Shown one piece after another: positions 13,051 to 49,207 of a stretch of 64,000 bases of DNA (position 1 is its first letter; the number at the start of each line of letters is the position of its first letter). The notes under the pieces are model-generated. The model did no database searches, was not told the DNA's origin, and was given only the letters and a program-made list of their open reading frames with translations. The position numbers and the translations under genes were made by a program. The stretch spans positions 245,332-309,331 of the forward strand of contig JAJYUZ010000002.1 of the NCBI GenBank assembly GCA_021792255.1, read 5' to 3'. The DNA comes from Thermoplasmata archaeon. GTDB taxonomy: Archaea > Thermoplasmatota > Thermoplasmata > Thermoplasmatales > GCA-001856825.

Positions 13051-13092
13051 TGTTATGGCATAATTACTGGCTATAAGAATTTGCTATGAAGT

Positions 13093-13214
13093 GGAGGCGG
13101 CGAACCGCATTTCCCATGCCCTCGCGGAACACAGTACGCGTGCGGAACGTGGACGGGCTTAACCTTCGGGTTCGGAATGAGACCGGGTGTTTCCCCGTCG
13201 CTATGGCCGTCAAC
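13093..13214 (-). rRNA. rrf: 5S ribosomal RNA
   Basis: The minus strand reads GGUUGACGGCCAUAGCGACGGGGAAACACCCGGUCUCAUUCCGAACCCGAAGGUUAAGCC...CCGCGAGGGCAUGGGAAAUGCGG..GCCGCC. These are canonical 5S loop C/helix III and loop E segments. The ends are approximate, within a few nt. An AT-rich TATA-like AATAAAATA lies ~30 nt upstream. Confidence 0.85.
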
Positions 13215-25963: not shown

Positions 25964-26250
25964 GAGATTTGCCCTCTTAAACAAGCCTTTTGCTCTCAAT
26001 ACACTAGTTCCAATAACGCAACGATAACCGTTGATGGAGGCAAAACATTCAATTATGCAAATAAATCATCAACTACTTTGCCCTGTACTTATTTCAAATC
26101 TGGCGCAAGATATCAGGTCATAATGAATGGAACAACAGTACCTTATTTCATTTCTGACGATGATATTATCGCCTCTTTAAACGGCTGTTTTGAGGCAGTA
26201 TCTTCGATTTGCTTTTAAATATGTTTTGGGGTTCAAATCTTCCTATATAT

Positions 26251-26324
26251 GGGCTTGTCCGGATTTGAACCGGAGTCTCCGACTCCCGAAGCCGAAAGGA
26301 TGGACCAATCTACCCCACAAGCCC
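26251..26324 (-). tRNA. tRNA-Pro (anticodon CGG)
   Basis: The minus strand reads GGGCUUGUGGGGUAGAUUGGUCCAUCCUUUCGGCUUCGGGAGUCGGAGACUCCGGUUCAAAUCCGGACAAGCCC. A cloverleaf was folded by hand. The anticodon loop is UU-CGG-GA and the T-loop is UUCAAAU. No intron and no encoded CCA. Confidence 0.9.
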
Positions 26325-30850: not shown

Positions 30851-31850
30851 TATTCAGGTATAGGTCCCTGTAACAAGAATCTGCCGCTATGGCACCATCA
30901 GATGCTGCCACCACTATCTGTGCAAAGGATCCTGCCACGTCTCCTGCAGCATAAACCCTTTCCACATTGGTCCTGCCGCTTCTGTCTATTTTGATGTACC
31001 CTCTGTCTGTAACTTCCACTCCTAGGCTCTTAGAGAGTTCCGATTGAGGTTCCAGTCCAACATAAATGAACACACCGTCAAAACTTTCTTCGTATTCCTT
31101 GCCATTAATCCTGTCCCTGAATTTTACGGTCTTGACCAGTCTTCCTTCTCCTTTAATTTCAATGACCTGAACGTTTTGTCTGTAATCAATCCCCATCGAC
31201 TGTATCTGTTTGACGTACGCGTCTTCACACATGTACCTAGGCATAAATTCAAAGATCTTCACTTCAGACACTATGTTCTTCATAGAAATCGCGGCAATTG
31301 CCCCCGAATTTCCTCCTCCTATTACGAGTACCTTCTTGTTCTTGTAGAGCCAACCATCACAGGTGCTGCAGTACGAGACTCCCTTCCCGTAGTACTCTTT
31401 CTCTCCGGGAATGCCTAGGTGTTTGTGTTTCGTTCCAGTAGCGAAAATGATTGCCTTTGAATGGAATTCTCCCTTCTCGGTTTCCAGCAAAAATCCGTTC
31501 TCCTTTCTGATGGAAATTACCATGTTGTTGTCAACTATCTTGGTATAGTTTCGTGCGTGCTCCAGGAACTCTTTTGCCAGATCAGTTCCCGCGATCTCGG
31601 TGAATCCGAGATAGTTCTCAACTAGAGGTGCTTCCAGCGTCAATCCCCCAGCCGTAGTTCCATCGATCACGACGTTAGAGAGTCCTGCTCGAGTCGCATA
31701 GACAGCCGCAGAAAGCCCGGCTGCCCCAGCTCCTATAATGACAAGATCAAAGTCTCTTTTTTCTAACTCTTGTCTCTCTTCTCCTAAGATGAGCTCCAAT
31801 AGGAATCCCCCTTTACATCGGAGGCATTCCGCCCATACCTTCAGGGCCAC
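30840..31850 (-). CDS. trxB: thioredoxin reductase
   Basis: FAD motif LVIIGAGAAG, redox-active CSTCDG, NAD(P)H motif VIGGGNSG, and AAGDVA. The ATG at 31850 overlaps the thermosome 3' end. A TTG at 31799 is an alternative start that avoids the overlap. Confidence 0.85.
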   Translation of the reverse strand: MALKVWAECLRCKGGFLLELILGEERQELEKRDFDLVIIGAGAAGLSAAVYATRAGLSNVVIDGTTAGGLTLEAPLVENYLGFTEIAGTDLAKEFLEHARNYTKIVDNNMVISIRKENGFLLETEKGEFHSKAIIFATGTKHKHLGIPGEKEYYGKGVSYCSTCDGWLYKNKKVLVIGGGNSGAIAAISMKNIVSEVKIFEFMPRYMCEDAYVKQIQSMGIDYRQNVQVIEIKGEGRLVKTVKFRDRINGKEYEESFDGVFIYVGLEPQSELSKSLGVEVTDRGYIKIDRSGRTNVERVYAAGDVAGSFAQIVVAASDGAIAADSCYRDLYLNNAR

Positions 31851-33462
31851 CCATTCCCGGAGGCATGCCTCCAGGCGGGCCCTCGCTCTTTGATTTCCTA
31901 GATGAGATTACGTCGTCAATCCTCAGTATCATTGTTGCGACTTCGGTTGCGCTTTCGATAGCGTGACTCTTCACTCTGACCGGCTCTAATACGTTCTTCT
32001 TGAAGAGATCGCCGACAGTTCCGTCCATCGCATCAATTCCCACATTCTTGTTTCCTGTCTGGTGTTCCGATCTCAGTTTGAGCAGCGAATCAATTGGATC
32101 CATACCTGCGTTTTCAGCCAGAGTTCTAGGGACTATCTCGAGTGCATTTGCGAATGTTTCAATGGCCAGCTGCTCTCTTCCGCCCACAGTCGGGGCATAC
32201 TTCTTTAGTTGATACGCTAGCTCTGCCTCTATCGCTCCTCCACCCGTCACAAAAGATTGATCCTCAATTGCCACACCTACTACCTTGAGTGCGTCGTGGA
32301 GTGCCCTTTCAACTTCGTCTATAGTGTGCTGCGTCCCTCCCCTTATAAGAATTGAAACCGCTTTAGGATACTTGCATCCGGTGATGAAAGTCAACTTGTC
32401 GTCCCCAATCTTTCTCTCCTCGGTCTTCTCTGCGTTTCCCAGATCTTTCGAAGTAAGATCATCAAGATTTGTAACGATCTTTGCCCCAGTTGCTTTTGCA
32501 ATCTTTTCCATATCGCTCTTCTTGACTCTCCTGACCGCATATATGCCTTCCTTTGCAAGGAAGTGCTGTGCAAGATCGTCAACTCCCTTCTGGCTCATTA
32601 GAACGTTTGCGCCAGACTTCTTGACTTTATCTACCATCGCCCTGAGGGTTTCTTCTTCTTGGTCGAGGAATGCCTGAATCTTGGATGGATCCGTAATTTG
32701 AACCTTGGCATCGATCTCAGTTTTCTTGATTTCCAGACCGGAATCGATAAGTGCTATCTTAGAGCTCTTAACTTCATTCGGCATTCTCGGATGAACCTTT
32801 TCTTTGTCTATGACAACTCCTTCTATTAGCTCAGAATCTGTGATTCCTCCCCCGAACTTTTTCTGGATGAGTATGTTGTCAACATCCACAATCTTTTTTC
32901 CGTCTCTCTCTTCGACGATACTCTTGACAGCCTTCATTGCCATCTTTGCAAGAAAATCGGTCACACCACCAACGTTCTTTCCTGTCATAGCGGTCAGTGC
33001 AACGTTCTTAAGAACTTCATCACTAATTTTCTTCTCAGATATGCTAGACAGAATCTCAGCGGTCTTATTGGACGCCAACTTATATCCGTTGGCTATGACG
33101 GTTGGATGGACGTTCTGATCTAGTAATAGCTCAGCCTGTTTCAGTAATTCTCCGGCAATAACCACTGCAGTAGTCGTACCATCTCCCACTTCTTGATCCT
33201 GTCCTTTTGCAATTTCAATAATCATTTTTGCGGTGGGATGATCGACATCCATCTGCTTCATTATGGTAGCCCCATCATTAGATATGGTAATATCTCCCAG
33301 CGAATCTACTAACATCTTGTCCATTCCTTTCGGGCCAAGTGCCGATTTGACTGTATCTGCAATAGCCTTGGCGGCCTCAATATTATTTCTTTGAGCATCT
33401 TTTCCAGATTCCCTGGTCGAACCTTCTTTCAAAACTAGGATAGGGATTTGTCCCGATAACAT
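31813..33462 (-). CDS. ths: thermosome subunit (group II chaperonin)
   Basis: LGPKGMDKML, ITNDGATI, VGDGTTT and VTGGGAIE, with a C-terminal GGMPPGMGGPEGMGGMPPM tail. Confidence 0.95.
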   Translation of the reverse strand: MLSGQIPILVLKEGSTRESGKDAQRNNIEAAKAIADTVKSALGPKGMDKMLVDSLGDITISNDGATIMKQMDVDHPTAKMIIEIAKGQDQEVGDGTTTAVVIAGELLKQAELLLDQNVHPTVIANGYKLASNKTAEILSSISEKKISDEVLKNVALTAMTGKNVGGVTDFLAKMAMKAVKSIVEERDGKKIVDVDNILIQKKFGGGITDSELIEGVVIDKEKVHPRMPNEVKSSKIALIDSGLEIKKTEIDAKVQITDPSKIQAFLDQEEETLRAMVDKVKKSGANVLMSQKGVDDLAQHFLAKEGIYAVRRVKKSDMEKIAKATGAKIVTNLDDLTSKDLGNAEKTEERKIGDDKLTFITGCKYPKAVSILIRGGTQHTIDEVERALHDALKVVGVAIEDQSFVTGGGAIEAELAYQLKKYAPTVGGREQLAIETFANALEIVPRTLAENAGMDPIDSLLKLRSEHQTGNKNVGIDAMDGTVGDLFKKNVLEPVRVKSHAIESATEVATMILRIDDVISSRKSKSEGPPGGMPPGMGGPEGMGGMPPM

Positions 33463-33708: not shown

Positions 33709-34101
33709 TCATGACTTCGAACTTAGAGTATGTTCCTTGGCCCTCACTAAATGTTTCAGTTTTATGAAATATAATATAGCAGTCAGTATACTGCCGACAA
33801 TCATAGATATCTGAAATGCAGCCATAAAATGCTCTCCACCTACTACTTGTGGTGTATCGAAAATTTTGGGGTTTCCGTTGTAGATCACGGGAAGCTCCCA
33901 ATAAGCATGGAAATATGTCTCAAGAATGTAATTCACTCCTGGAAGATAGCTGTAATGAGGAGGGCCTAACCCAGTTGTATAGACGAAGTCCCACAGTGCC
34001 ACCAGATAGTACAAGATAGCTCCCTCTACGACTGCAAAGATAACAGTAACACTTACTATTTTATGAGAGCTTTTCATAGTGTCAAGAGCCTGAGCTCCCA
34101 T
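33709..34101 (-). CDS. small membrane protein coupled to the G1 peptidase gene
   Basis: The ORF overlaps the upstream protease gene stop by 20 nt. It has two clear TM helices flanking an aromatic-rich loop. No family recognised. Confidence 0.5.
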   Translation of the reverse strand: MGAQALDTMKSSHKIVSVTVIFAVVEGAILYYLVALWDFVYTTGLGPPHYSYLPGVNYILETYFHAYWELPVIYNGNPKIFDTPQVVGGEHFMAAFQISMIVGSILTAILYFIKLKHLVRAKEHTLSSKS

Positions 34102-35380
34102 ATAAGTTATACTTGGAGTTTACCCATGTCATATTCGGTTCCATATATCCGCTTTGAGTCGTGATTGCATCATTTATGTTTTGATTCACATTTCCCCACG
34201 ATTGATTTAGTATGTATTTGTTGTAATATCCATTGTTCAGCAATGTGTTAAGGTTGCTATAGCCATTAATAGTCAGGACTGATGGTGAAACAAAGGTAAC
34301 TGCAGGACTAAATACGGCCAGTTGTGAGATTACATAGATCCCAGATCCGGCTTGATCCGTTTCCGGTGTTTCTATAATATACTGTGCATACTTAGGCGAA
34401 TTGTAATATGGAGTGGTAACAGTGTAGGTGTAATAATTGTTCAGAGTAATAGCGACATATGTCGCGATATCATTCGAATTGTAGACTATTGAAAATTCTA
34501 TGCTTGTTCCACTTGAAGGAGCTGGCATTCCAGGATACCCCCCGGAGTAGGCAGGCGATGTTCCATTAGACCAAGTCTGGTACCATATAGTATATGCACC
34601 CCAGTTATATCCTCCAGTCCATGAATCATACCAGAAGATTCTTTGGAATCCCGTTTGTACTATGTTTGTAGCATTAGAATTGCTTGGATCGCTGCCTCCA
34701 ACATATGGAGAGATGCCGATCCATCCGTTCATTGCTTCATTATATCCCGATGGATGGGAAGAAAGTGTTATAGAAGGGATCGTAAGGGAAGCAGTATTCT
34801 GTGTTATAGAATAACTTGGATCGTAACACTCATATCCAGCCCAGTTTTCGTTGTATTGGGTGGTTGAAGAGTATACAATTGGCCCCACTGAGATTTCTGG
34901 ACCGTAGACTGTCTCATTCAAAGAGGAGTATCCGTAGGTATAACAAGTCTGATTTACGTTCCCTTGTACAGTCATAACAAGATAAACGTTGTAACTTTGG
35001 TTCACAAAGTCATAGCTTTCTCCTTGAGTAAAGTAGATTTCATTATACTGTTCGTAGGAATTATAACCTTCCTGAAAGACGGCGCTATTCTCGATGTCGT
35101 GAAGAGCTTCTATAGAATCTCTCTCCAACGCACTAAGGGAATTGCTATATTTGAAATTCCACTCGTGACTTACTGCCACTTCTTCTATTGCCAGTACACT
35201 AGAATTTGTAACGCCATCAGAAAGCGAATTGAAATTCAGTAGCGCATTGTAAGAAGTTGAATGTAGCCCACCCTGTACACCTTCGGTACTGCCGAGCAAT
35301 GAAACATTGACAGAAAGCATGACTAAAGAAATAAAAATGCTTATCATCACTTTCTTCTTGAAATTTTTCATATTATCCAT
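34082..35380 (-). CDS. secreted glutamic peptidase, family G1 (eqolisin-like) with N-terminal pro-region
   Basis: Signal/TM segment KKVMISIFISLVMLSV. The collinear G1 landmarks are all present: ENWAGY, WIGISP...IVQTGF (catalytic Gln position), YTIWYQTW, AQYIIETPE (catalytic Glu position) and LAVFSPAVTF. Many N-x-S/T sequons. Confidence 0.75.
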   Translation of the reverse strand: MDNMKNFKKKVMISIFISLVMLSVNVSLLGSTEGVQGGLHSTSYNALLNFNSLSDGVTNSSVLAIEEVAVSHEWNFKYSNSLSALERDSIEALHDIENSAVFQEGYNSYEQYNEIYFTQGESYDFVNQSYNVYLVMTVQGNVNQTCYTYGYSSLNETVYGPEISVGPIVYSSTTQYNENWAGYECYDPSYSITQNTASLTIPSITLSSHPSGYNEAMNGWIGISPYVGGSDPSNSNATNIVQTGFQRIFWYDSWTGGYNWGAYTIWYQTWSNGTSPAYSGGYPGMPAPSSGTSIEFSIVYNSNDIATYVAITLNNYYTYTVTTPYYNSPKYAQYIIETPETDQAGSGIYVISQLAVFSPAVTFVSPSVLTINGYSNLNTLLNNGYYNKYILNQSWGNVNQNINDAITTQSGYMEPNMTWVNSKYNLYGSSGS

Positions 35381-35624
35381 CCAAAATGACTATATTTCCA
35401 TATCACTTAACCTTACCGGAGAATTAATTCAAAATAAGTGAATTAACTACCTTTAATCACTTAAAGTCGACAAAAAGTTGTAAATATCGCTTCCTAAGAC
35501 AATGGGTTTATTCAGACACACTTTTAGACTCTATAGTGTCGGGTTAAATCTTAAATGGTTTAGCAGGAATATTCTTTGCAGATCGTTAGAATTTGATATT
35601 TAGTACTCGCTTTCTGGGACTACA

Positions 35625-35717
35625 ACTATCACCATTTTGTTATCACTAATTTGGACTGAAGGAAAAGCAACGGTTGAATTGGACGATTGAAGTTAAAGAT
35701 AACAAAATGGTGATAGT
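35625..35717. repeat. 93-bp element with perfect 20-bp terminal inverted repeats
   Basis: ACTATCACCATTTTGTTATC (35625-35644) and its exact reverse complement GATAACAAAATGGTGATAGT (35698-35717), separated by 53 nt. It sits in the 484-bp gap between two protease genes. Confidence 0.8.
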
Positions 35718-35864
35718 AATAACTCTTGAAATTACTTAGTTGATAGCCCTTAGCTCGTAACTTTGAGTTGATGGCTCTAAGCAGGTACTCTATTTTTCTA
35801 GGAACTTTGGAAAAATGAAAGAATTGAAAAAGAAATAAATAAAGTATAAAAATGAATCTTATCG

Positions 35865-36278
35865 TCAGGTCTTTATGTCTAGTAAGAAGCCGTTATCTAT
35901 GAAATCATTAACCCCGTTTGTCACCACATCAAACACTTTGATTTGTTTTTCGACCATACTCACGGTAGAAACGTTAACCCAAGTGTTATTTACTGGATTG
36001 AACAGTTGATCTCCAACAGTGAGATTTTCAGGGTTTTTCAGCCAACCCGTAAAGGTGGAGTTTCTGATGTAAATGGGTTGATCAGTTGGGGTCAATAACA
36101 ATGCGCCGCCATTTACGATTACCTCTTGAGATACTTCTGTCTTGTTGTTAAATAGAAGAGTTCCTATGAACATACTTCCATTTTGAAGATTATACTCTTC
36201 AACTTTTCCCCCCTGTTTCAGGTCTTGAATTGGTATATAACCGTTTGGCGTCAGGATTAGACTTCCCCAGGCAACACA
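35865..36278 (-). other. C-terminal Hint-like (Hedgehog/intein-type) domain, copy B
   Basis: TSGGG-C(36276-36278)VAWGSLILTPNGYIPIQDLKQGG ... LLLTPTDQPIYI ... VFDVVTNGVNDFIDNGFLLDIKT-stop. About 35-40 percent identical by eye to copy A. Confidence 0.6.
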
Positions 36279-37716
36279 GCCTCCTCCAGAAGTAGAGACA
36301 TCAACATAGAATTGACTTTGTGTGACGGAATAGTCATCAGTTACCGACATTGTAAGTCGATAACTTCCAGTGCTTGCACTACTCGGAACCTCAATATTGA
36401 CGTAGAAAGAGAATGGCGGAGACCCGCTTGAAGGCACAAAGCCATAAGTCCAGCCATTAGGGAGGTTTACCATACTGAGAAAGACATCACTGCCTCCACT
36501 ATACGCCTGGTAGGTATTTCCATATATCTCGACGCCTGAGCCAGGAGAGACAGCTGTAGAACCTAGGTAGCCCGCGCCAAGATCCACTCCGATAGTGGAC
36601 AAGAACCATTCATTGGCAATAGTTACATCGTTTCCGCTCGTTAGGACTCTAGTTGTGATATTTGATGGCAGCGGACCCGTAGAAAAGGCTGACCAACCAG
36701 ATTCCGTATTCCCAGTAAAATTAAAGTTCCAATACGGCCAGTACTGAGTTGTGGTATCGTACACCTCTTCCCAGTCCGTGTAATCATAATATCCATCATA
36801 CGTTGACTGTGCTACGAATTCAGTCCCTCCTGTATGATACCACTTTATAAAGATAGGATAGGGATTTACGCCTTGTCCTGTGTATGCTGAAAACTCTACT
36901 GTGCCATTGCTATTCGTGCTCATTACAAAGGTATAATATTGGTTTTCTTCAAGGTTGTAAGCGTCAGGATTGTAGACATAAGTTTGATTGGTCCATCCAA
37001 CGGACCAAGTTAGCCCCCAAGAACCATAATCTCCAGAGAAACCAATCTGGTCATACGCATTGCTGTTATCCCAAATGGAGAGGATTACATAATAGAAATC
37101 TGTTGGGGCCTGAATTCGATTCTGGGGTTAATATGGTGACCTGTACCTGAGTGAGCGTGGTTGAACCTCCCCATGATGCCCCTTCCACATATGAAACATT
37201 GGAAGAGTATCTAGGAGGAAAAGAGGCAGACGGAAAGCTGGCATTACTAGACACCGAAACTTTGTGCATGGTAGGAGGAGGTAGGTTTCCGCTGTACGTA
37301 CTGGGCGATGTGATATAATACTTGATAATAAGTAAAGTTACTTCTTTAGTACCTGACCATTCAATACCGACGTAATTGTCTGGAGAGAGCCAAGTCTTAA
37401 GAGATGGGCTCGGTATACCACTGATGGATATAGAATAATTTGTTCCATTCGTTTCAACCACCCAACCCTTCAATCCCGTACCTGCAGGAGAATATAGGTT
37501 GACTCCAAATAATGTAAAACTCACAAAGTGAAAGATGAAAGTTTGTGTGGAAGTGGTATTCCCTCCGAGGAAAGATAATGCAAGAGTTACATTTTCAGAA
37601 AAATAGTTATTGAGATTCGGAGTGGCCCGATCGTTCGAATAAAGCGCTAAGCTCATAGAAGACGTTGCAGTTATAATAGAAACTATTATCACAAGACTTT
37701 TTAAGTTCATGTTCAA
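35865..37716 (-). pseudogene. frameshifted gene for a secreted G1-like beta-sandwich protein with C-terminal Hint-like domain
   Basis: ORF 37066..37716 carries a signal peptide (MNLKSLVIIVSIITATSS). The frame of ORF 35865..36923 stays open upstream to 37127 and overlaps the tail of the first ORF. The two frames differ by 1 nt at a C4 run (37125-37128). The joined product would be ~616 aa, with SWGGS, ILSIWDN..YDQIGF and YTDWEEVYD collinear with G1 landmarks. Confidence 0.6.
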
Positions 37717-37754
37717 ACATCTCCTGCTTTAAATGAGTTGAACACATTTTACCG

Positions 37755-37775
37755 TTTCCCAGACAGTCTGGGAAA
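37755..37775. promoter_or_regulatory. perfect 21-bp palindrome (candidate operator) in divergent promoter region
   Basis: TTTCCCAGAC-A-GTCTGGGAAA, with 10-nt arms and a 1-nt centre. Its 3' edge lies 3 nt upstream of a TTAAATA box, which is ~25 nt upstream of the GTG start at 37807. Confidence 0.6.
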
Positions 37776-37806
37776 TCATTAAATACGGTTTATTTCTGGT
37801 ATAGTT

Positions 37807-38337
37807 GTGAGGAAGGACGGCCTAGTCTTGGTTATCACGATAGGTATCTCTCTTGCGAACTCCATATTCTCAATAGTTTTCGTTTTGCTAATTCTCACTT
37901 CAAATATTCCACCAGTTAAGGGGTCGCCTGGAATGGTAAAGGTACCTGGTTATTCAGTTGCAGCAATTCCAATTTCAACTGCGGCACTTGGTTGGTTAAT
38001 TATCTGCTATGAATTGATATCGCATAGAAAGAACGATATTTCGAAGATTCTGAGGAAAAGACTATCAGAAAAATGGGATAACCGAGCACTGTACGATGCA
38101 TTTAGGGGGAGGGGCGGACCGAGAAGGCTTTCAATAATGGAGAGCTTGGGTACACCGAAGATGAGAAATGAAATAGCCCAGCTCACTGGCACTGACTGGA
38201 AAGAGGTCGATAGGAATATAAGAATTCTTGAGTCAATTGATTTAGTAAGAATACAATACAACCACGGCACGGTATCAGTATACGAATTAACTGGTAAAGG
38301 AAAAGAGTTCCTGAACCTTGTCGAAACAGAGATTTAG
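37807..38337 (+). CDS. membrane-tethered winged-helix (ArsR-like) transcription regulator
   Basis: Two N-terminal TM helices are followed by GRGGPRRLSIMESLGTPKMRNEIAQLTGTDWKEVDRNIRILESIDLVRI...VYELTGKG, an ArsR/HTH_20-like wHTH. Confidence 0.65.
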   Translation: MRKDGLVLVITIGISLANSIFSIVFVLLILTSNIPPVKGSPGMVKVPGYSVAAIPISTAALGWLIICYELISHRKNDISKILRKRLSEKWDNRALYDAFRGRGGPRRLSIMESLGTPKMRNEIAQLTGTDWKEVDRNIRILESIDLVRIQYNHGTVSVYELTGKGKEFLNLVETEI

Positions 38338-39007
38338 GCTCGGGCGTTTCGTTAAGGGGTTTCGCACGCTACTCTGTCACCTCCATTTGTTCGCTTTGAA
38401 TGTACATTGTTGTAAGGGCCCAAGTGCAAGTCTTATGATAATCTAGACAACGGAGGATCTTTAGGTACTGCGCAACATACTTCTCTATTACCGTATCTTA
38501 ATACAAACTTACTCAGCTCTTATCTCATAAGTTGATTTCCTATTAAATTAAGGGTGATACATGTCACACCCGAAACAGGGTTCTGTTAACTTGCTGGATG
38601 CTGGACATGGTTGTTAATTATCGGATGCTACCAAAGACATTAAAATTCGGATCTTAACCATAGAAACTAAGACAAGGCACTGGTTTAAATCATCAAAGAT
38701 GTTTTGATTTTTAGACCAATTTTAAGAAAGGCAAATAATGAGCTCATCAGAAAGAGACCAATTTCTAAAGAAGAGTGATTCGTTGGTTTTGGCAGAGTTA
38801 GGAATATCAGCCTATAGGTCCCTAGTATTTACCGTCGTAAATCTCTCAATCACTATTTCAACAGCAAAGTCTTCACTGATGACTGGAACTGCGACAACAT
38901 TTCTAACCATTCCTCTCGTATTCGATTTACTTGTTATTTCCTTTTGACGAGCACTAAGAGAGATAATTAGACTGAATGCTAAAACTGATTGATTTCTTCT
39001 TGTTGGC

Positions 39008-39319
39008 TTAACTGTAGCTAATTCTGCGATGTATCACTAGGACTACACCAGTTGCAGGGAGCAGGAATATCAAGAAATCTAAAAATAATGCGAGAAAATC
39101 TATAACCCCTATGGTAAAGATAGCGTGATTGCCTTGATAAATTCCCCAAGCATAAGGAAAAGGAAAACCTCTCTGCCAGGTTGTCCAGAGAATCCCGGCT
39201 GTATGAACTACTTTAAAGTAGAGATAGCTGAGCAATGTTAGTCCCACTGAGATTAGAACAGAATATATGGTCAGCAAGAATGCCCTCCTATACTCTGTTT
39301 TTATCATTTTAACCTCCAC
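39008..39319 (-). CDS. small membrane protein coupled to the S53 protease gene
   Basis: 103-aa ORF with 3 TM segments, starting 15 nt after the protease stop codon. No family recognised. Confidence 0.5.
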   Translation of the reverse strand: MEVKMIKTEYRRAFLLTIYSVLISVGLTLLSYLYFKVVHTAGILWTTWQRGFPFPYAWGIYQGNHAIFTIGVIDFLALFLDFLIFLLPATGVVLVIHRRISYS

Positions 39320-39334
39320 GCCTCCTTTAATCTC

Positions 39335-39778
39335 TCAAGTCTTCACATCCAAAAGTATTCCATTAGCAATGTAGCTGCTTCTGAGATATCCATCTTGGTA
39401 GAACAATTTGGACCCTTGGATGTCATAAACAGTGAAATTTCCATTGGTCATCTGTATTGAAGTGACTTGTATCCAAGTGTTATTTAAAGGATCAAATATG
39501 GCGTCTGATGTATTCAGATAACCGACCATTATCCATTCTACTGTTCCGTTTGAAAGTTTTACATAGATGGGTTGATCGCGTGCACCTGAAACGAACAGTA
39601 ATCCGTTATCAATATTGATTATTGAATTTACGTTTGTGACATTAATTTCAGTAACTTCCTCTTCAACAAAGTTGCCTCCGATTGGATCATAGGAAAGTAT
39701 TTGATCTCCCACTTTTAGATCTTGAACTTGGATGGTCTTGTTCAAAGAAGTCTGAATAAGAGTTCCATTCAAAACACA
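39335..39778 (-). other. C-terminal Hint-like (Hedgehog/intein-type) domain, copy A
   Basis: SSGGGGG-C(39776-39778)VLNGTLIQTSLNKTIQVQDLKVGDQIL ... LFVSGARDQPIYV ... VYDIQG...YIANGILLDVKT-stop. Confidence 0.6.
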
Positions 39779-41563
39779 ACCGCCACCACCTCCACTTGAG
39801 GTATAATAGTTGCGAAGGGCTTGAACAAAATTATATGCATTAACGCTGCCAATGCCAGTAACATAATCCCATCCGCTTCCCGCCGACATTCCGTTATTTC
39901 CAGTTGTTATGTCCGTGTATGCTCCTGACGAGTAGCCTATGCTGTAAATCCCTTTATTTATGAAACCGTAAACATCCCCCGTCCCATTGAGGTAAGTATC
40001 AGCTATTATACCTGCCATCATTGGAGTAGCGTAACTAGTACCATCTACACCGCCATAGAAGGTGCCATCGAAGTATACCACGATAGATGGCGCCGCGGCA
40101 AAAGAGATGTCCGGAATGTCTCTGTACCCATTGTTAGGCGCAACGCCACTTTGGTATGAAGGTTGGGAGAATATGGGATTATTAGTCACGTATCCTCTTC
40201 CACTTCCACTCCAGCCACTTTGGCCGCTGATATCTGAACTCGTCAAAGATAAAGTTACACCTCCAACTGCTATTGAGTTAGGGTCCAATGCAACCATATC
40301 TATGTTATTGCCACTTGACGAGTATCCATTGTCTCCTGTGGCAGCCACAATCGTAATTCCTTCAGTAGTTGCCTGAGCAAGAAAATCATGGATATTATCA
40401 ACTTCGCTAGTACTTATGGAGTTGTAAGTTGGCGCAATGCTAAAGCTCATCACAACGGGAACTAAAGTATTGACCATATAACTAAGCTCTTGATCAAATT
40501 CGTATTCGAATCCAGTATCCCCTCCAGATGGAGCGCTATAAATGACATCGTCGATAGTGGCGCCTGGAGCAATAGTACCTGCCCACTCAACGTCAAGAGT
40601 CTCCTCTAGACTAGCTCGATTATTCCCCCACGGTGGTAGCCCTCCTCCACCGATTATTATTTGCGTATCGGATGGATAATAACTCTGACCATTGTAGGTG
40701 TATTTTATGTTGTAATGTTCCCAGAAATTTTGGGGATCTGTCCCGTAATACCTCCAGTCAGGATAACCTATCAATCCAATTGTTATCCACTTTCCATCAT
40801 ACCCATTTTGTAATAAAGGAGTAATATTGAAGTATGGGTTTATATCATAGGGGTTTGCCGTTAGCACTGTCTGTCCTGGTAAGCCCCCATAGACTTGATC
40901 CCACTCAGTATAAACAAATGGAGTATTATTTACTAACTCAGCTCCGTAATCGTTTAGACCACTGATTGTAGTTATCTCGTTGACTATGTTGTTTGGAATA
41001 ATGGGATCATTGGAATTTGCATAAAAGTAGGTTCCATTGAGTTCATAATTGATCAAGGTAATTCTCAATAATTGTTCCACGAATCCAGCTGTCTCTTCAA
41101 AGGAGATTTCTCTTCCGTTAGAGAAATTCATTTCTTTCACTCCAGAAGAACTCAGCCAGTCCTCCACAGAACTTATCGCGCCTGCCATTGGTCCAAATTT
41201 TGACATGAACTCAGATGGAGTCAAGAACTTGTGAAAGAGGCTGCTGCTTGTATTTGAAACTAACTGCGAATAACTCGTTGCTGCAGAAATATCAATCGAA
41301 AGATATATTTCCAAAGATAGTTCAGTAGTATTGTTCAGTTGAGATAGGTCCATAGCTTGGGAAAGAAAAGGAAGAGTATCATTCAATGGCACTTCTAGTA
41401 CCTCGTTTACCATGGGTGGGGTGCTTGTTCCGTCTAAATAGGATATCCCAGCTATTGAGGAGCTAGATAACAAACTGAAAGAAATCGCTGATACGAGAAC
41501 AAAAAGTCCGTACTTTTCAAAAATAGCTTTTACTAGGACTCTGAAATTCATACTTTGTATCAT
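39335..41563 (-). CDS. sedolisin-type serine-carboxyl pro-peptidase (S53) with C-terminal Hint-like domain
   Basis: N-terminal TM/signal segment, then a pro-domain (FLTPSEF..FGP), then the catalytic EETLDVEWAG (Glu/Asp) and DGTSYATPMMAG (Ser). A GGGGG-Cys junction and a 147-aa Hint-like tail follow. An alternative ATG is at 41551. Confidence 0.8.
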   Translation of the reverse strand: MIQSMNFRVLVKAIFEKYGLFVLVSAISFSLLSSSSIAGISYLDGTSTPPMVNEVLEVPLNDTLPFLSQAMDLSQLNNTTELSLEIYLSIDISAATSYSQLVSNTSSSLFHKFLTPSEFMSKFGPMAGAISSVEDWLSSSGVKEMNFSNGREISFEETAGFVEQLLRITLINYELNGTYFYANSNDPIIPNNIVNEITTISGLNDYGAELVNNTPFVYTEWDQVYGGLPGQTVLTANPYDINPYFNITPLLQNGYDGKWITIGLIGYPDWRYYGTDPQNFWEHYNIKYTYNGQSYYPSDTQIIIGGGGLPPWGNNRASLEETLDVEWAGTIAPGATIDDVIYSAPSGGDTGFEYEFDQELSYMVNTLVPVVMSFSIAPTYNSISTSEVDNIHDFLAQATTEGITIVAATGDNGYSSSGNNIDMVALDPNSIAVGGVTLSLTSSDISGQSGWSGSGRGYVTNNPIFSQPSYQSGVAPNNGYRDIPDISFAAAPSIVVYFDGTFYGGVDGTSYATPMMAGIIADTYLNGTGDVYGFINKGIYSIGYSSGAYTDITTGNNGMSAGSGWDYVTGIGSVNAYNFVQALRNYYTSSGGGGGCVLNGTLIQTSLNKTIQVQDLKVGDQILSYDPIGGNFVEEEVTEINVTNVNSIINIDNGLLFVSGARDQPIYVKLSNGTVEWIMVGYLNTSDAIFDPLNNTWIQVTSIQMTNGNFTVYDIQGSKLFYQDGYLRSSYIANGILLDVKT

Positions 41564-41584
41564 GGCATCCAGTTCATTTATTGA

Positions 41585-41605
41585 TTTCCCAGAATTTCTG
41601 GGAAA
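41585..41605. promoter_or_regulatory. perfect 21-bp palindrome (candidate operator), second copy
   Basis: TTTCCCAGAA-T-TTCTGGGAAA. It lies between a TATA-like CATTTATT (41575-41582, minus-strand AATAAATG) for the protease gene and TTATATATA (41609-41617), which is ~25 nt upstream of the ATG at 41638. Confidence 0.6.
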
Positions 41606-41637
41606 TTGTTATATATAGATTACCGCTAATTTGAGCA

Positions 41638-42411
41638 ATGGGAAAAAGAAACTACGTCATTATTCTTCTACTCACGTTATCAATAGTTAGTTCTGCATAT
41701 TCCGTATTTCTTTTCCTAAGTTCATATTTTTCTCAGTCCATTTTTTTTGTTTATACTTCTAAGGCAATCCTAGCATATCCATATAACATACTTCCTGTAT
41801 CCTCCGCAATGTTCGGCTGGGTCTTGTTAAGTTATCAACTGATTTACAATAATAGGAGACATATTGCTACAATTATTAGAAAAGAGATTTCTGGTAAGTC
41901 AGATGATTGGACTATTTATTATGCCTTTAAGGGCAAAGGAGGTGCAAGGAGACTAACGATAATGGAAGCCCTAACCTCACCCAGACTGAGGAACGAAGAG
42001 GAAATGCTTAGGGAACTAGAACTCCCATACAGAGTCGTGATGCTGAGTTCAGGAGATATGGGTGTCAGAGATTTCAAGCAGTTAGATCTTGAGGTATTCA
42101 TGCCCTACCAGGCAAAGTACAGGGAAGTAATGTCCAACGACAACTGTACGGACTGGATATCCAGGAGATCTGGCATTAGACTTACTGACGCAGAAGGCAA
42201 CAAGATCTTCGCTCATACAGTAGACGCAACAGGACTTGCAATTCAACGTACCATCAAGTCTATACTGGAAGTACACCAGAGGAAAGACGGGACTGTCCGT
42301 GTACCTGAGCCCTTGGTGAAGTTTACGGAATTCTCGACCATCAGAACAAGGATAAGAAATAAAGATGTGTTGACCCTTGATGATCAGCAGTCTTGGGATT
42401 CAATTCTTTGA
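41638..42411 (+). CDS. chimeric ORF: N-terminal part of a membrane-tethered wHTH paralog fused in frame to a seryl-tRNA synthetase C-terminal fragment
   Basis: aa 1-120 parallel the 37807 regulator (2 TM, then GKGGARRLTIMEALTSPRLRNE versus GRGGPRRLSIMESLGTPKMRNE). The sequence then switches to LELPYRVVMLSSGDMG..LDLEVFMP..YREVMSNDNCTDW..RRSGIR...HTVDATGLAIQRTIKSILE, which is the SerRS class II core downstream of motif 2, including motif 3. Confidence 0.6.
   Translation: MGKRNYVIILLLTLSIVSSAYSVFLFLSSYFSQSIFFVYTSKAILAYPYNILPVSSAMFGWVLLSYQLIYNNRRHIATIIRKEISGKSDDWTIYYAFKGKGGARRLTIMEALTSPRLRNEEEMLRELELPYRVVMLSSGDMGVRDFKQLDLEVFMPYQAKYREVMSNDNCTDWISRRSGIRLTDAEGNKIFAHTVDATGLAIQRTIKSILEVHQRKDGTVRVPEPLVKFTEFSTIRTRIRNKDVLTLDDQQSWDSIL
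41998..42411 (+). pseudogene. seryl-tRNA synthetase 3' fragment (about 135 codons)
   Basis: Only the segment from after motif 2 to the C-terminus is present. The N-terminal coiled coil, motif 1 and motif 2 are absent, so it cannot be a functional SerRS by itself. Confidence 0.6.
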
Positions 42412-49134: not shown

Positions 49135-49207
49135 GGGCTCGTGGTCTAGCGGCTATGACGTCGCCCTTACAAGGCGGAGACCGCCGGTTCGAATCCGGCC
49201 GGGCCCA
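49135..49207 (+). tRNA. tRNA-Val (anticodon UAC)
   Basis: GGGCUCGUGGUCUAGCGGCUAUGACGUCGCCCUUACAAGGCGGAGACCGCCGGUUCGAAUCCGGCCGGGCCCA. A cloverleaf was folded by hand. The anticodon loop is CU-UAC-AA and the T-loop is UUCGAAU. Confidence 0.9.

Follow-up and report, generated by a model that had tools for sequence, protein, structure and literature searches.

Hint-fold domains described so far comprise inteins, the Hog domains of Hedgehog-type proteins, Vint domains and the BIL domains of bacteria and ciliates, and no large, extracellular and always C-terminal archaeal family was found described in the open-access literature. A Hog domain is defined as a Hint module plus an adduct-recognition region, SRR/ARR (PMC2362128). 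The histidine of block B is thought to protonate the leaving amine, and its mutation usually leaves an inactive precursor (PMC7765530, PMC6333167); the Tko CDC21-1 intein is active without a block-B His, by means of a Lys that stabilises the tetrahedral intermediate (PMC7765530). In acid the released amine becomes protonated, which drives N-to-S transfer, and few junctions are as favourable for it as Gly-Cys (PMC5458133). The present report concerns a gene on the minus strand, at positions 39335 to 41563, of a 64,000-nucleotide stretch of contig JAJYUZ010000002.1 from a Thermoplasmata archaeon (the whole stretch is called the window below). Its product, the S53-Hint protein, is a pre-pro-sedolisin (S53 acid protease) in which a poly-Gly linker leads into a terminal domain of 147 amino acids (aa) that is almost certainly a Hint-fold domain of a distinct clade. 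Sequence comparison indicates that the family to which this tail belongs is most aptly treated as a clade of its own within the Hint superfamily, archaeal, nearest to the BILs and apparently undescribed. The gene is laid out as follows.

39335..41563, minus strand: pre-pro-sedolisin (S53) gene with a C-terminal Hint domain, 742 aa
41444..41563, minus strand: signal peptide or anchor region, about aa 1-40, with the hydrophobic core GLFVLVSAISFSLL followed by SSSSIAG, read from the sequence by eye
40949..41359, minus strand: Pro-kumamolisin activation domain, aa 69-205, Pfam PF09286 (Pro-kuma_activ), E 2e-22
39815..40663, minus strand: S53 catalytic domain, aa 301-583, aligned to kumamolisin-As (1SIO), E 4e-16
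39779..39802, minus strand: linker T588-S-S-G-G-G-G-G595, with Gly595 at -1 of the predicted scissile bond
39776..39778, minus strand: Cys596, Hint Cys1 and predicted nucleophile, aligned to position 1 of BIL2
39338..39778, minus strand: Hint-fold domain, aa 596-742, 147 aa, from profile, AlphaFold2, Foldseek and hhalign
39572..39574, minus strand: Gln664 (domain Gln69), at the position of the block-B catalytic His
39422..39424, minus strand: Asp714 (domain Asp119), in the VYD motif, assigned to block F
39341..39349, minus strand: Asp739-Val740-Lys741 (D144-x-K146), aligned to His-Asn-(+1 Lys) of canonical BIL repeats
39335..39337, minus strand: stop codon, directly after the Hint domain

Gene callers place the start at Met5 (41551), which gives a protein of 738 aa. 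The sedolisin motif forms E-x3-D, GD-x-G and GTS-x-x-P are all aligned in the cargo, and its catalytic motifs stand in register with those of kumamolisin-As (EETLDVEW for the Glu/Asp pair, TGDNG for the oxyanion Asp and GTSYATP for the Ser). Judged by these motifs, the cargo is a sedolisin with its pro-domain, Glu/Asp/Ser triad and oxyanion Asp, and its catalytic domain is intact. The junction and the tail read NYYTSSGGGGG-C596-VLNGTLIQT...RDQPIYV...VYDIQG...YIANGILLDVKT-stop. The precomputed annotation of the protein lists Pro-kuma_activ and Peptidase_S8 only. Four metagenome assemblies, independent of one another, contain the gene at 99.95-100% identity, and it is therefore not an assembly artefact.

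Single-sequence scans with the Pfam and NCBIfam models leave the S53 tail below threshold (Hint 0.058, Intein_splicing 0.082), and the same is found for the tail of a second Hint-tailed open reading frame (ORF) of the window, at 35865..36923 (PT-HINT 0.0026, Hint_2 0.0068, intein_Nterm 0.098). These sub-threshold matches belong nearly all to the Hint clan, with one weak Kelch_6 match besides. Profiles are far more sensitive: one built from four tails matches the C. thermocellum BIL 2LWY at 6.9e-9 among PDB sequences, and one built from 48 tails matches Tetrahymena BIL2 (6TMM/6Y75) at 2.8e-10, over profile positions 5-141 of 146, and 2LWY at 1.6e-9, in both cases over the whole length, followed by the mini-inteins Spl DnaX (3.6e-5), TvoVMA, NpuDnaB and KlbA. 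The family profile scores the S53 tail at 5e-60, and hhalign aligns the family with the canonical BIL-type repeat of protein P0022 (98.9%, E 1.9e-17). At the sequence level the tail is well beyond a chance similarity. The AlphaFold2 model obtained from the 48-sequence alignment is all-beta (mean pLDDT 93.7, pTM 0.87) and, as modelled, the tail has the horseshoe shape of the Hint fold. Foldseek comparison of this model with the PDB gave 58 matches at E<=1e-3, and among the 50 listed all are BIL, intein or HhC, with query-based template-modelling (TM) scores, TMq, from 0.78 down to 0.57 (BIL2 0.76-0.78, 2LWY 0.75, TvoVMA 0.73, DnaB 0.70, HhC 1AT0/6TYY 0.69). The low single-sequence scores are the one point in favour of regarding the tail as a decayed intein remnant, a gene-fusion artefact or a chance similarity, a view to which we give practically no credence: it is refuted by the recurrence of the gene in four assemblies, the paralog in the window, 140 representatives of the same architecture at E<=1e-30, the confident fold and the fact that the domain never interrupts a host protein. 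A sorting signal of the lipobox type or of the sortase/archaeosortase type was considered as well and rejected, since the tail has no transmembrane helix and no basic end and forms a globular Hint fold.

A preliminary description of this DNA, made from the letters alone, had proposed a complete sedolisin domain followed by a Hint-like tail, in the order cargo, poly-Gly, Cys, Hint and stop. The sedolisin domain is confirmed by the Pro-kuma_activ and kumamolisin-As matches with their motifs, and the layout is real, position 39778 being the first base of the Cys596 codon. The Hint-like nature of the tail is borne out by the profile matches to solved Hint domains and by a predicted fold for which only Hint structures are found among the listed matches. 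The profile search that it recommended gives nothing above threshold with single-sequence Hint models and succeeds at the level of a family profile; the recommended structure prediction yielded a confident Hint fold, so that the outcome named there as fatal (no Hint fold or HMM hit) did not occur.

The tail is one of many. When 1.84 billion cluster representatives were searched exhaustively with HMMER, 2223 scored E<=1e-3; of these, 560 reached <=1e-10 and 140, which come mainly from Thermoplasmata, reached <=1e-30. This exhaustive search was needed to reveal the family, as a word-indexed search with the tail alone found 2 relatives only. The domain ends at most 10 residues from the C-terminus in 145 of the 150 best hits, no member sits inside a host protein as an insertion, and the cargoes are mutually unrelated. 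A Pfam scan of 88 full-length members found CarboxypepD_reg in 19, CarbopepD_reg_2 in 9 and thermopsin in 5, together with fn3, Big_1 and peptidase A4, and most of the 88 have no Pfam match at all; beta-sandwich repeats are among the cargoes, and a sedolisin-type cargo occurs in at least 6 other representatives. Existing models recognise the domain at E<=1e-3 in 8 (Hint_2), 8 (Intein_splicing) and 1 (PF01079, Hint) of these 88 members; overall identity within the family amounts to only about 35-50%. P0180, the nearest sedolisin from elsewhere (40% identity), ends with its catalytic domain and has no tail, and from these sequences the Hint tail is a detachable add-on module. Related loci in species-representative genomes were sought with a four-sequence alignment and two peptide patterns, a search that cannot establish absence from cultured Thermoplasmatales: 13 of the 15 loci lie in metagenome-assembled genomes of Thermoplasmata, including Ca. 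Sysuiplasma superficiale and a Thermoplasmataceae archaeon, and the other two are one in a 'Crenarchaeote' single-cell genome and one weak Nitrosocosmicus match that is probably not real. A conserved partner gene was also sought beside family members and none was found, in keeping with a module that works autonomously. At least one member carries the NCBI name 'Hint domain-containing protein [Thermoplasmata archaeon]'; the open-access literature yielded no account of a Hint domain from Thermoplasmata or of one attached to thermopsin or sedolisin. The preliminary description had presented an apparently novel archaeal protease-Hint fusion; it is not a one-off, as a large modular family rides on many secreted cargoes and one of its members already has the NCBI label.

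Tandem arrangements were seen in some proteins. In P0005 one family Hint domain directly follows another (…LLDRK|CVAQGT…), and P0022 (1285 aa) and P0078 (1207 aa) carry 4-8 tandem repeats of the canonical BIL type (DHP … VHNK|GGCF); P0022 ends in a Pro-rich, collagen-like tail.

By profile and by fold the nearest described systems are the BIL domains (2LWY, BIL2 6TMM/6Y75 and the P0022 repeats; TM 0.75-0.82). BILs and the archaeal family have in common the motifs of blocks A, B, F and G, DxPIY, NTW and (Y/F)(I/V)ANG-hLh, and the +1 Lys. As in BILs, Cys1 follows Gly-Gly and the domain is non-mobile, is found in variable secreted or modular proteins and acts, here by prediction, at its N-terminal junction. 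Unlike BILs, the family is archaeal (Thermoplasmata), lies at the extreme C-terminus and is extracellular in an acidophile; its block-B His is an invariant Gln, and the tails of the window are free of His. The C-terminal His-Asn conserved in A-type BILs (PMC7765530) is absent and replaced by Asp-x, and the comparison with B-type BIL/Hint_2 (PF13403) gives 15.3 and 17.2 bits against a gathering threshold of 28.4, with Gln in place of the block-B His.

Hedgehog/Hog proteins (HhC; 1AT0, 6TYY) show the same layout of a secreted, variable cargo, Gly-Gly|Cys and a C-terminal Hint domain, and the S53-Hint protein does have the Gly-Cys junction after a secreted cargo that characterises Hog; modular evolution of the N-termini is likewise a trait of both (PMC2362128). 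HhC has the same fold (TM 0.69-0.73), yet BILs and inteins come ahead of it in both searches, and Pfam Hint (PF01079) scores the S53 tail at 13.4 bits against a cut-off of 29.7. Unlike Hog, the archaeal family is prokaryotic and lacks both the SRR/ARR and the block-B TxxH His. Mini-inteins (Ssp and Npu DnaB, Spl DnaX, TvoVMA, KlbA) also share the fold, and blocks A, F and G are recognisable in the tail. Unlike inteins, the tail lacks a C-extein, a +1 nucleophile (the +1 residue is Lys) and a terminal Asn and does not interrupt a conserved host protein, and splicing is therefore impossible. The Tko CDC21-1 intein provides a precedent for a site without block-B His, and at the active-site end of the archaeal family a Lys (K146) is likewise nearly invariant; unlike the family, Tko CDC21-1 is a true splicing intein and its compensating Lys lies elsewhere. 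PT-HINT and Hint_2 (PF13403), to which the window tails have weak matches, are also prokaryotic Hint modules of secreted multidomain proteins, but PT-HINT precedes and releases a C-terminal toxin whereas the archaeal tail has nothing downstream. As these groups are defined, the S53 tail belongs to none of Hog, intein, A-type BIL and Hint_2/B-type BIL. The preliminary description was right to set the tail apart from inteins (no C-extein, no terminal Asn, no endonuclease); its term 'Hedgehog-style' suits the layout and does not suit the family, as the nearest relatives are BILs and the sterol/adduct-recognition region is absent.

Conservation was counted over 141 C-terminal members, in a domain numbering in which Cys596 is residue 1. 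Position 1 is Cys in all 141 aligned members and position 69 is Gln in 141/141. Gly occupies position -1 in 136/141, -2 in 120/141 and -3 in 115/141, in runs of typically 3-7 Gly. Pro70 and Trp102 are each found in 138/141, Lys146 in 137/141, Gly140 in 132/141, Asp119 in 129/141 and Asp144 in 121/141, and independent sequence sets give the same pattern. Family members have 0-4 residues after Lys146, the S53 protein ending one residue past it. Cys596 is the sole cysteine of the 742-aa protein and Cys216 the sole one of the 352-aa second ORF; Cys1 is the single Cys in 123 of 139 family tails, and neither window tail contains a histidine. Gln69 faces the block-B His in three independent alignments (BIL2 His69, the DHP of 2LWY and the TPDHPIY of the P0022 repeat), in agreement with the earlier remark that DQP replaces the canonical motif. 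At the other end hhalign maps LLD-x-K onto LVH-N-K, the penultimate His giving way to Asp, the terminal Asn being variable and the +1 Lys being kept. Asp119 in VYD was assigned to block F by its likeness to VFDLTV...HNFVAND, which we take to be the corresponding DnaB-intein motif; its column faces His in the BIL2 alignment and Asn in that of the P0022 repeat. The set for Asn cyclisation (G:6 His, G:7 Asn, F:13 His) is lost while Cys1 and Asp119 are retained, a loss of the C-terminal cleavage residues that is to be expected where nothing lies downstream of the domain. Judged by these counts, strong constraint acts on the N-terminal nucleophile and the residues around it, although this set differs from the canonical one. 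The preliminary description had left the chemistry of the His-less site as non-standard or lost; Gln is invariant in 141/141 and the other active-site positions are conserved, which therefore favours a non-standard over a lost chemistry.

A second Cys stands 3-8 residues upstream of Cys1 in 32 of 139 tails (e.g. GCGGGGC, CSGGGGC). It could form a disulfide bond with Cys1 and so constitute a redox trap. Disulfides acting as redox traps are described for some inteins.

Thermoplasmatales are extreme acidophiles, mostly without wall or S-layer, that scavenge protein by means of secreted S53 and A5 (thermopsin) peptidases (PMC5155288). N-glycosylation sequons occur at 3.0 per 100 aa in family tails and at 4.8 and 4.4 in the two window tails, compared with 0-0.8 in cytoplasmic proteins of the same window, and charged residues make up 13.5-15% of the tails versus 23-28% of the cytoplasmic proteins. 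The sequons, the scarcity of charges, the signal peptide and the acid-active cargo (S53, thermopsin) therefore place the domain outside the cell, in acid.

We lean towards the view, by analogy with better known Hint domains, that the tail is an active N-terminal autoprocessing module. The pre-pro-protein would be exported by way of its N-terminal signal peptide, and the Hint domain would fold outside the cell, in acid. Cys596 would then attack the carbonyl of Gly595 (N-S acyl shift) to give a thioester between protease and Hint domain, and a nucleophile, water by default, would resolve this thioester so that the protease ending in ...SSGGGGG parts from the Hint domain. A C-terminal reaction is not expected, as the terminal Asn and both C-terminal His are absent and nothing follows the domain; with no C-extein and no Asn, resolution of the thioester with separation of cargo and Hint would therefore be the only outcome. 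At pH 1-3 solvent acid would protonate and trap the released amine, in a site putatively lined by Gln69 with Asp119, Asp144 and Lys146, and a His-free site working at such pH seems chemically reasonable. All of the proposed chemistry is inferred by analogy with Cys1 Hint domains (inteins, HhC, BILs, BIL2). The poly-Gly linker presumably would resist the acid endopeptidases of the same milieu. The tryptic peptide predicted to span the Gly595-Cys596 junction in the precursor form is NYYTSSGGGGGCVLNGTLIQTSLNK, and the processed form is predicted to give the semi-tryptic NYYTSSGGGGG and the N-terminal CVLNGTLIQTSLNK, where the NGT sequon may be glycosylated.

The Gly at -1 and the poly-Gly run support autoprocessing, as they recall the GG|C junctions of Hedgehog and BUBL (PMC8616854). 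Additionally, P0162 and P0163 have Ser for Cys1 (GGGGGG-S-V) and a divergent block B (PAQKLY) while retaining the invariant Gln; Ser1 in these two members fits a catalytic nucleophile, whereas a disulfide or a metal ligand would not tolerate Ser. On the other hand, several points weigh against an active module. Every member has Gln in place of the block-B His, which is regarded as indispensable to the initial reaction of inteins; the Thr of block B at -3 shows no conservation, and position 1 of P0036 is Tyr. A domain that removes itself, moreover, brings no obvious benefit, as if part of the story were missing.

The absence of all three canonical His and of the terminal Asn, with window tails free of His, would also suit an inert Hint module that lost autoprocessing with the change of His to Gln and is kept on the cargo as a folded C-terminal cap or as an oligomerisation or binding module. 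The block-B His is normally required (PMC7765530), and the richness in sequons is like that of a stable, surface-exposed module. An inert module would not, however, be expected to retain a Cys1 that is both invariant and the single Cys, a Gly at -1 (96% of members) and an occasional Ser1, or to conserve Gln69, Asp119, Asp144 and Lys146 among members about 35-50% identical, and we regard this explanation as rather unlikely. Among bacterial adhesins, in domains of the Gram-positive thioester type, Cys-Gln thioesters and Thr-Gln esters are known. An internal thioester between the side chains of Cys1 and Gln69 (a Ser-Gln ester in the Ser1 variants) might by analogy attach the whole uncleaved protein to a target. 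Cys1/Ser1 and Gln69 are the only residues strictly invariant together, and the block-B side chain adjoins residue 1 in solved inteins (PMC5458133); this idea is nonetheless highly improbable, as it leaves the strong Gly conservation at -1 to -3 unexplained, has no precedent in the Hint fold and calls for thiolate chemistry, which is disfavoured at very low pH.

If the module is active, as we favour, the Gly-thioester may be resolved by something other than water. Attack by a hydroxyl of a membrane tetraether lipid or lipoglycan, or by the Lys amine of a surface protein, would tether the cargo covalently, a refinement of the autoprocessing reading that we hold to be unlikely. It would resemble the esterification of Hedgehog to cholesterol and the conjugation of ubl4 to lysines by BUBL BIL2. 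The self-release or tethering of the protease suggested in the preliminary description is in this sense plausible. The best solved match in sequence and in fold, BIL2, conjugates its N-terminal cargo to amines through a GG|C thioester without ATP (PMC8616854), and the presence of the same module on many secreted cargoes suggests a shared fate such as surface retention. Retaining enzymes at the cell would pay for the mostly wall-less Thermoplasmatales, which rely on secreted S53 and thermopsin (PMC5155288), and it would supply the benefit that is not evident in a purely self-removing domain. Against this, no adduct-recognition region follows the Hint module, the protein ending one residue past Lys146; no acceptor-binding feature was identified and no conserved partner gene was found; and tail-less paralogs exist that are presumably functional as free enzymes. 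It is doubtful, though conceivable by analogy, that the family represents an archaeal, enzyme-independent form of surface anchoring in which a Gly-thioester made outside the cell at very low pH passes the cargo (acid proteases, beta-sandwich surface proteins) to a lipid or lipoglycan hydroxyl or to a protein amine.

The second Hint-tailed gene of the window lies 2.4 kb from the S53 gene and comprises the following features.

35865..36923, minus strand: second Hint-tailed ORF, 352 aa, ending LLDIKT-stop
35868..36278, minus strand: its Hint domain
36276..36278, minus strand: its Cys216
36078..36080, minus strand: its block-B Gln282
37066..37716, minus strand: 216-aa ORF with a signal or transmembrane segment, the split-off N-terminal part of the 35865..36923 gene

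The tail of this ORF is 33% identical to the S53 tail (E 5e-21). The gene is split by a 1-nucleotide insertion in a C-run near 37108 (GGCCCC versus GG-CTC in locus L011), and an intact 614-aa ortholog is present in Thermoplasmatales archaeon IK54 (L011 4579-6423). Each of three assemblies of independent origin (L017-L019) again has separate gene calls of 214 aa and 352 aa, and L016 shows additional disruption of the upstream ORF; the recurrence of the split calls across assemblies therefore indicates a real pseudogene or possibly a programmed frameshift. IK54 is the nearest named relative, the window being 84.5% identical to it in nucleotides over 2.9 kb, and nucleotide synteny with L011 spans 35650..38578 only, which leaves the S53-Hint gene outside. 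The related loci and the similarity to IK54 indicate a Thermoplasmatales-type archaeon, in line with the archaeal acidophile proposed earlier as host.

Both Hint-tailed genes lie in a block of secreted-protein genes at about 34000..42000, where the GC content is 0.38-0.43, compared with mostly 0.42-0.48 in the rest of the window, and this block looks like a variable, accessory region. A secreted protein of 432 aa with a signal peptide is encoded there at 34082..35380 (minus strand); it shares 27-28% identity with the cargo parts of several Hint-tailed members, has no Pfam match and ends tail-less at the linker (...LYGSSGS-stop), and its motifs NENWAGY, WIGI and IVQTG are, in our reading, reminiscent of G1/A4 acid peptidases. 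Between the two Hint-tailed genes, at 37807..38337 (plus strand), lies the gene for a 176-aa protein, 92% identical in L011, which has an N-terminal membrane segment and a C-terminal part that by eye resembles a winged-helix DNA-binding domain; it has no Pfam match. Small multi-pass membrane proteins are encoded closely downstream of the S53 gene (39008..39319, minus strand, 103 aa) and of the 432-aa paralog (33709..34101, minus strand, 130 aa). Comparison of the two shows no homology (E 0.5), and neither is conserved beside other family members. Elsewhere in the window are a thermosome subunit gene (31813..33462, minus strand; Cpn60_TCP1, E 8e-186), a 5S rRNA gene (13092..13214, minus strand) and the genes for tRNA-Pro(CGG) (26250..26324, minus strand) and tRNA-Val(TAC) (49135..49207, plus strand), landmarks that are consistent with an archaeal chromosome.

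Even if the tails are inert, they make up a sizeable domain family that is unannotated, since Pfam and NCBIfam miss most of its members, the S53-Hint protein included. If they are active, the block-B His, regarded as near-indispensable for the N-S acyl shift, would be replaceable throughout a family by Gln with Asp and Lys partners, with ambient acid probably supplying the proton. Such activity would bear on the mechanism of inteins, and it could yield acid-triggered, thermostable tags for self-cleavage or for the generation of thioesters. The combination of a secreted cargo with a C-terminal Hint domain constitutes a prokaryotic parallel to the Hedgehog/Hog design, and should the anchoring idea prove true, Hedgehog cholesteroylation and BUBL conjugation would have a prokaryotic counterpart, and the retention of exoenzymes by wall-less Thermoplasmatales would be accounted for. 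More generally, the family offers a possible answer to the question of what becomes of the acid proteases that wall-less extreme acidophiles secrete and live on: how these mature and are set free or kept.

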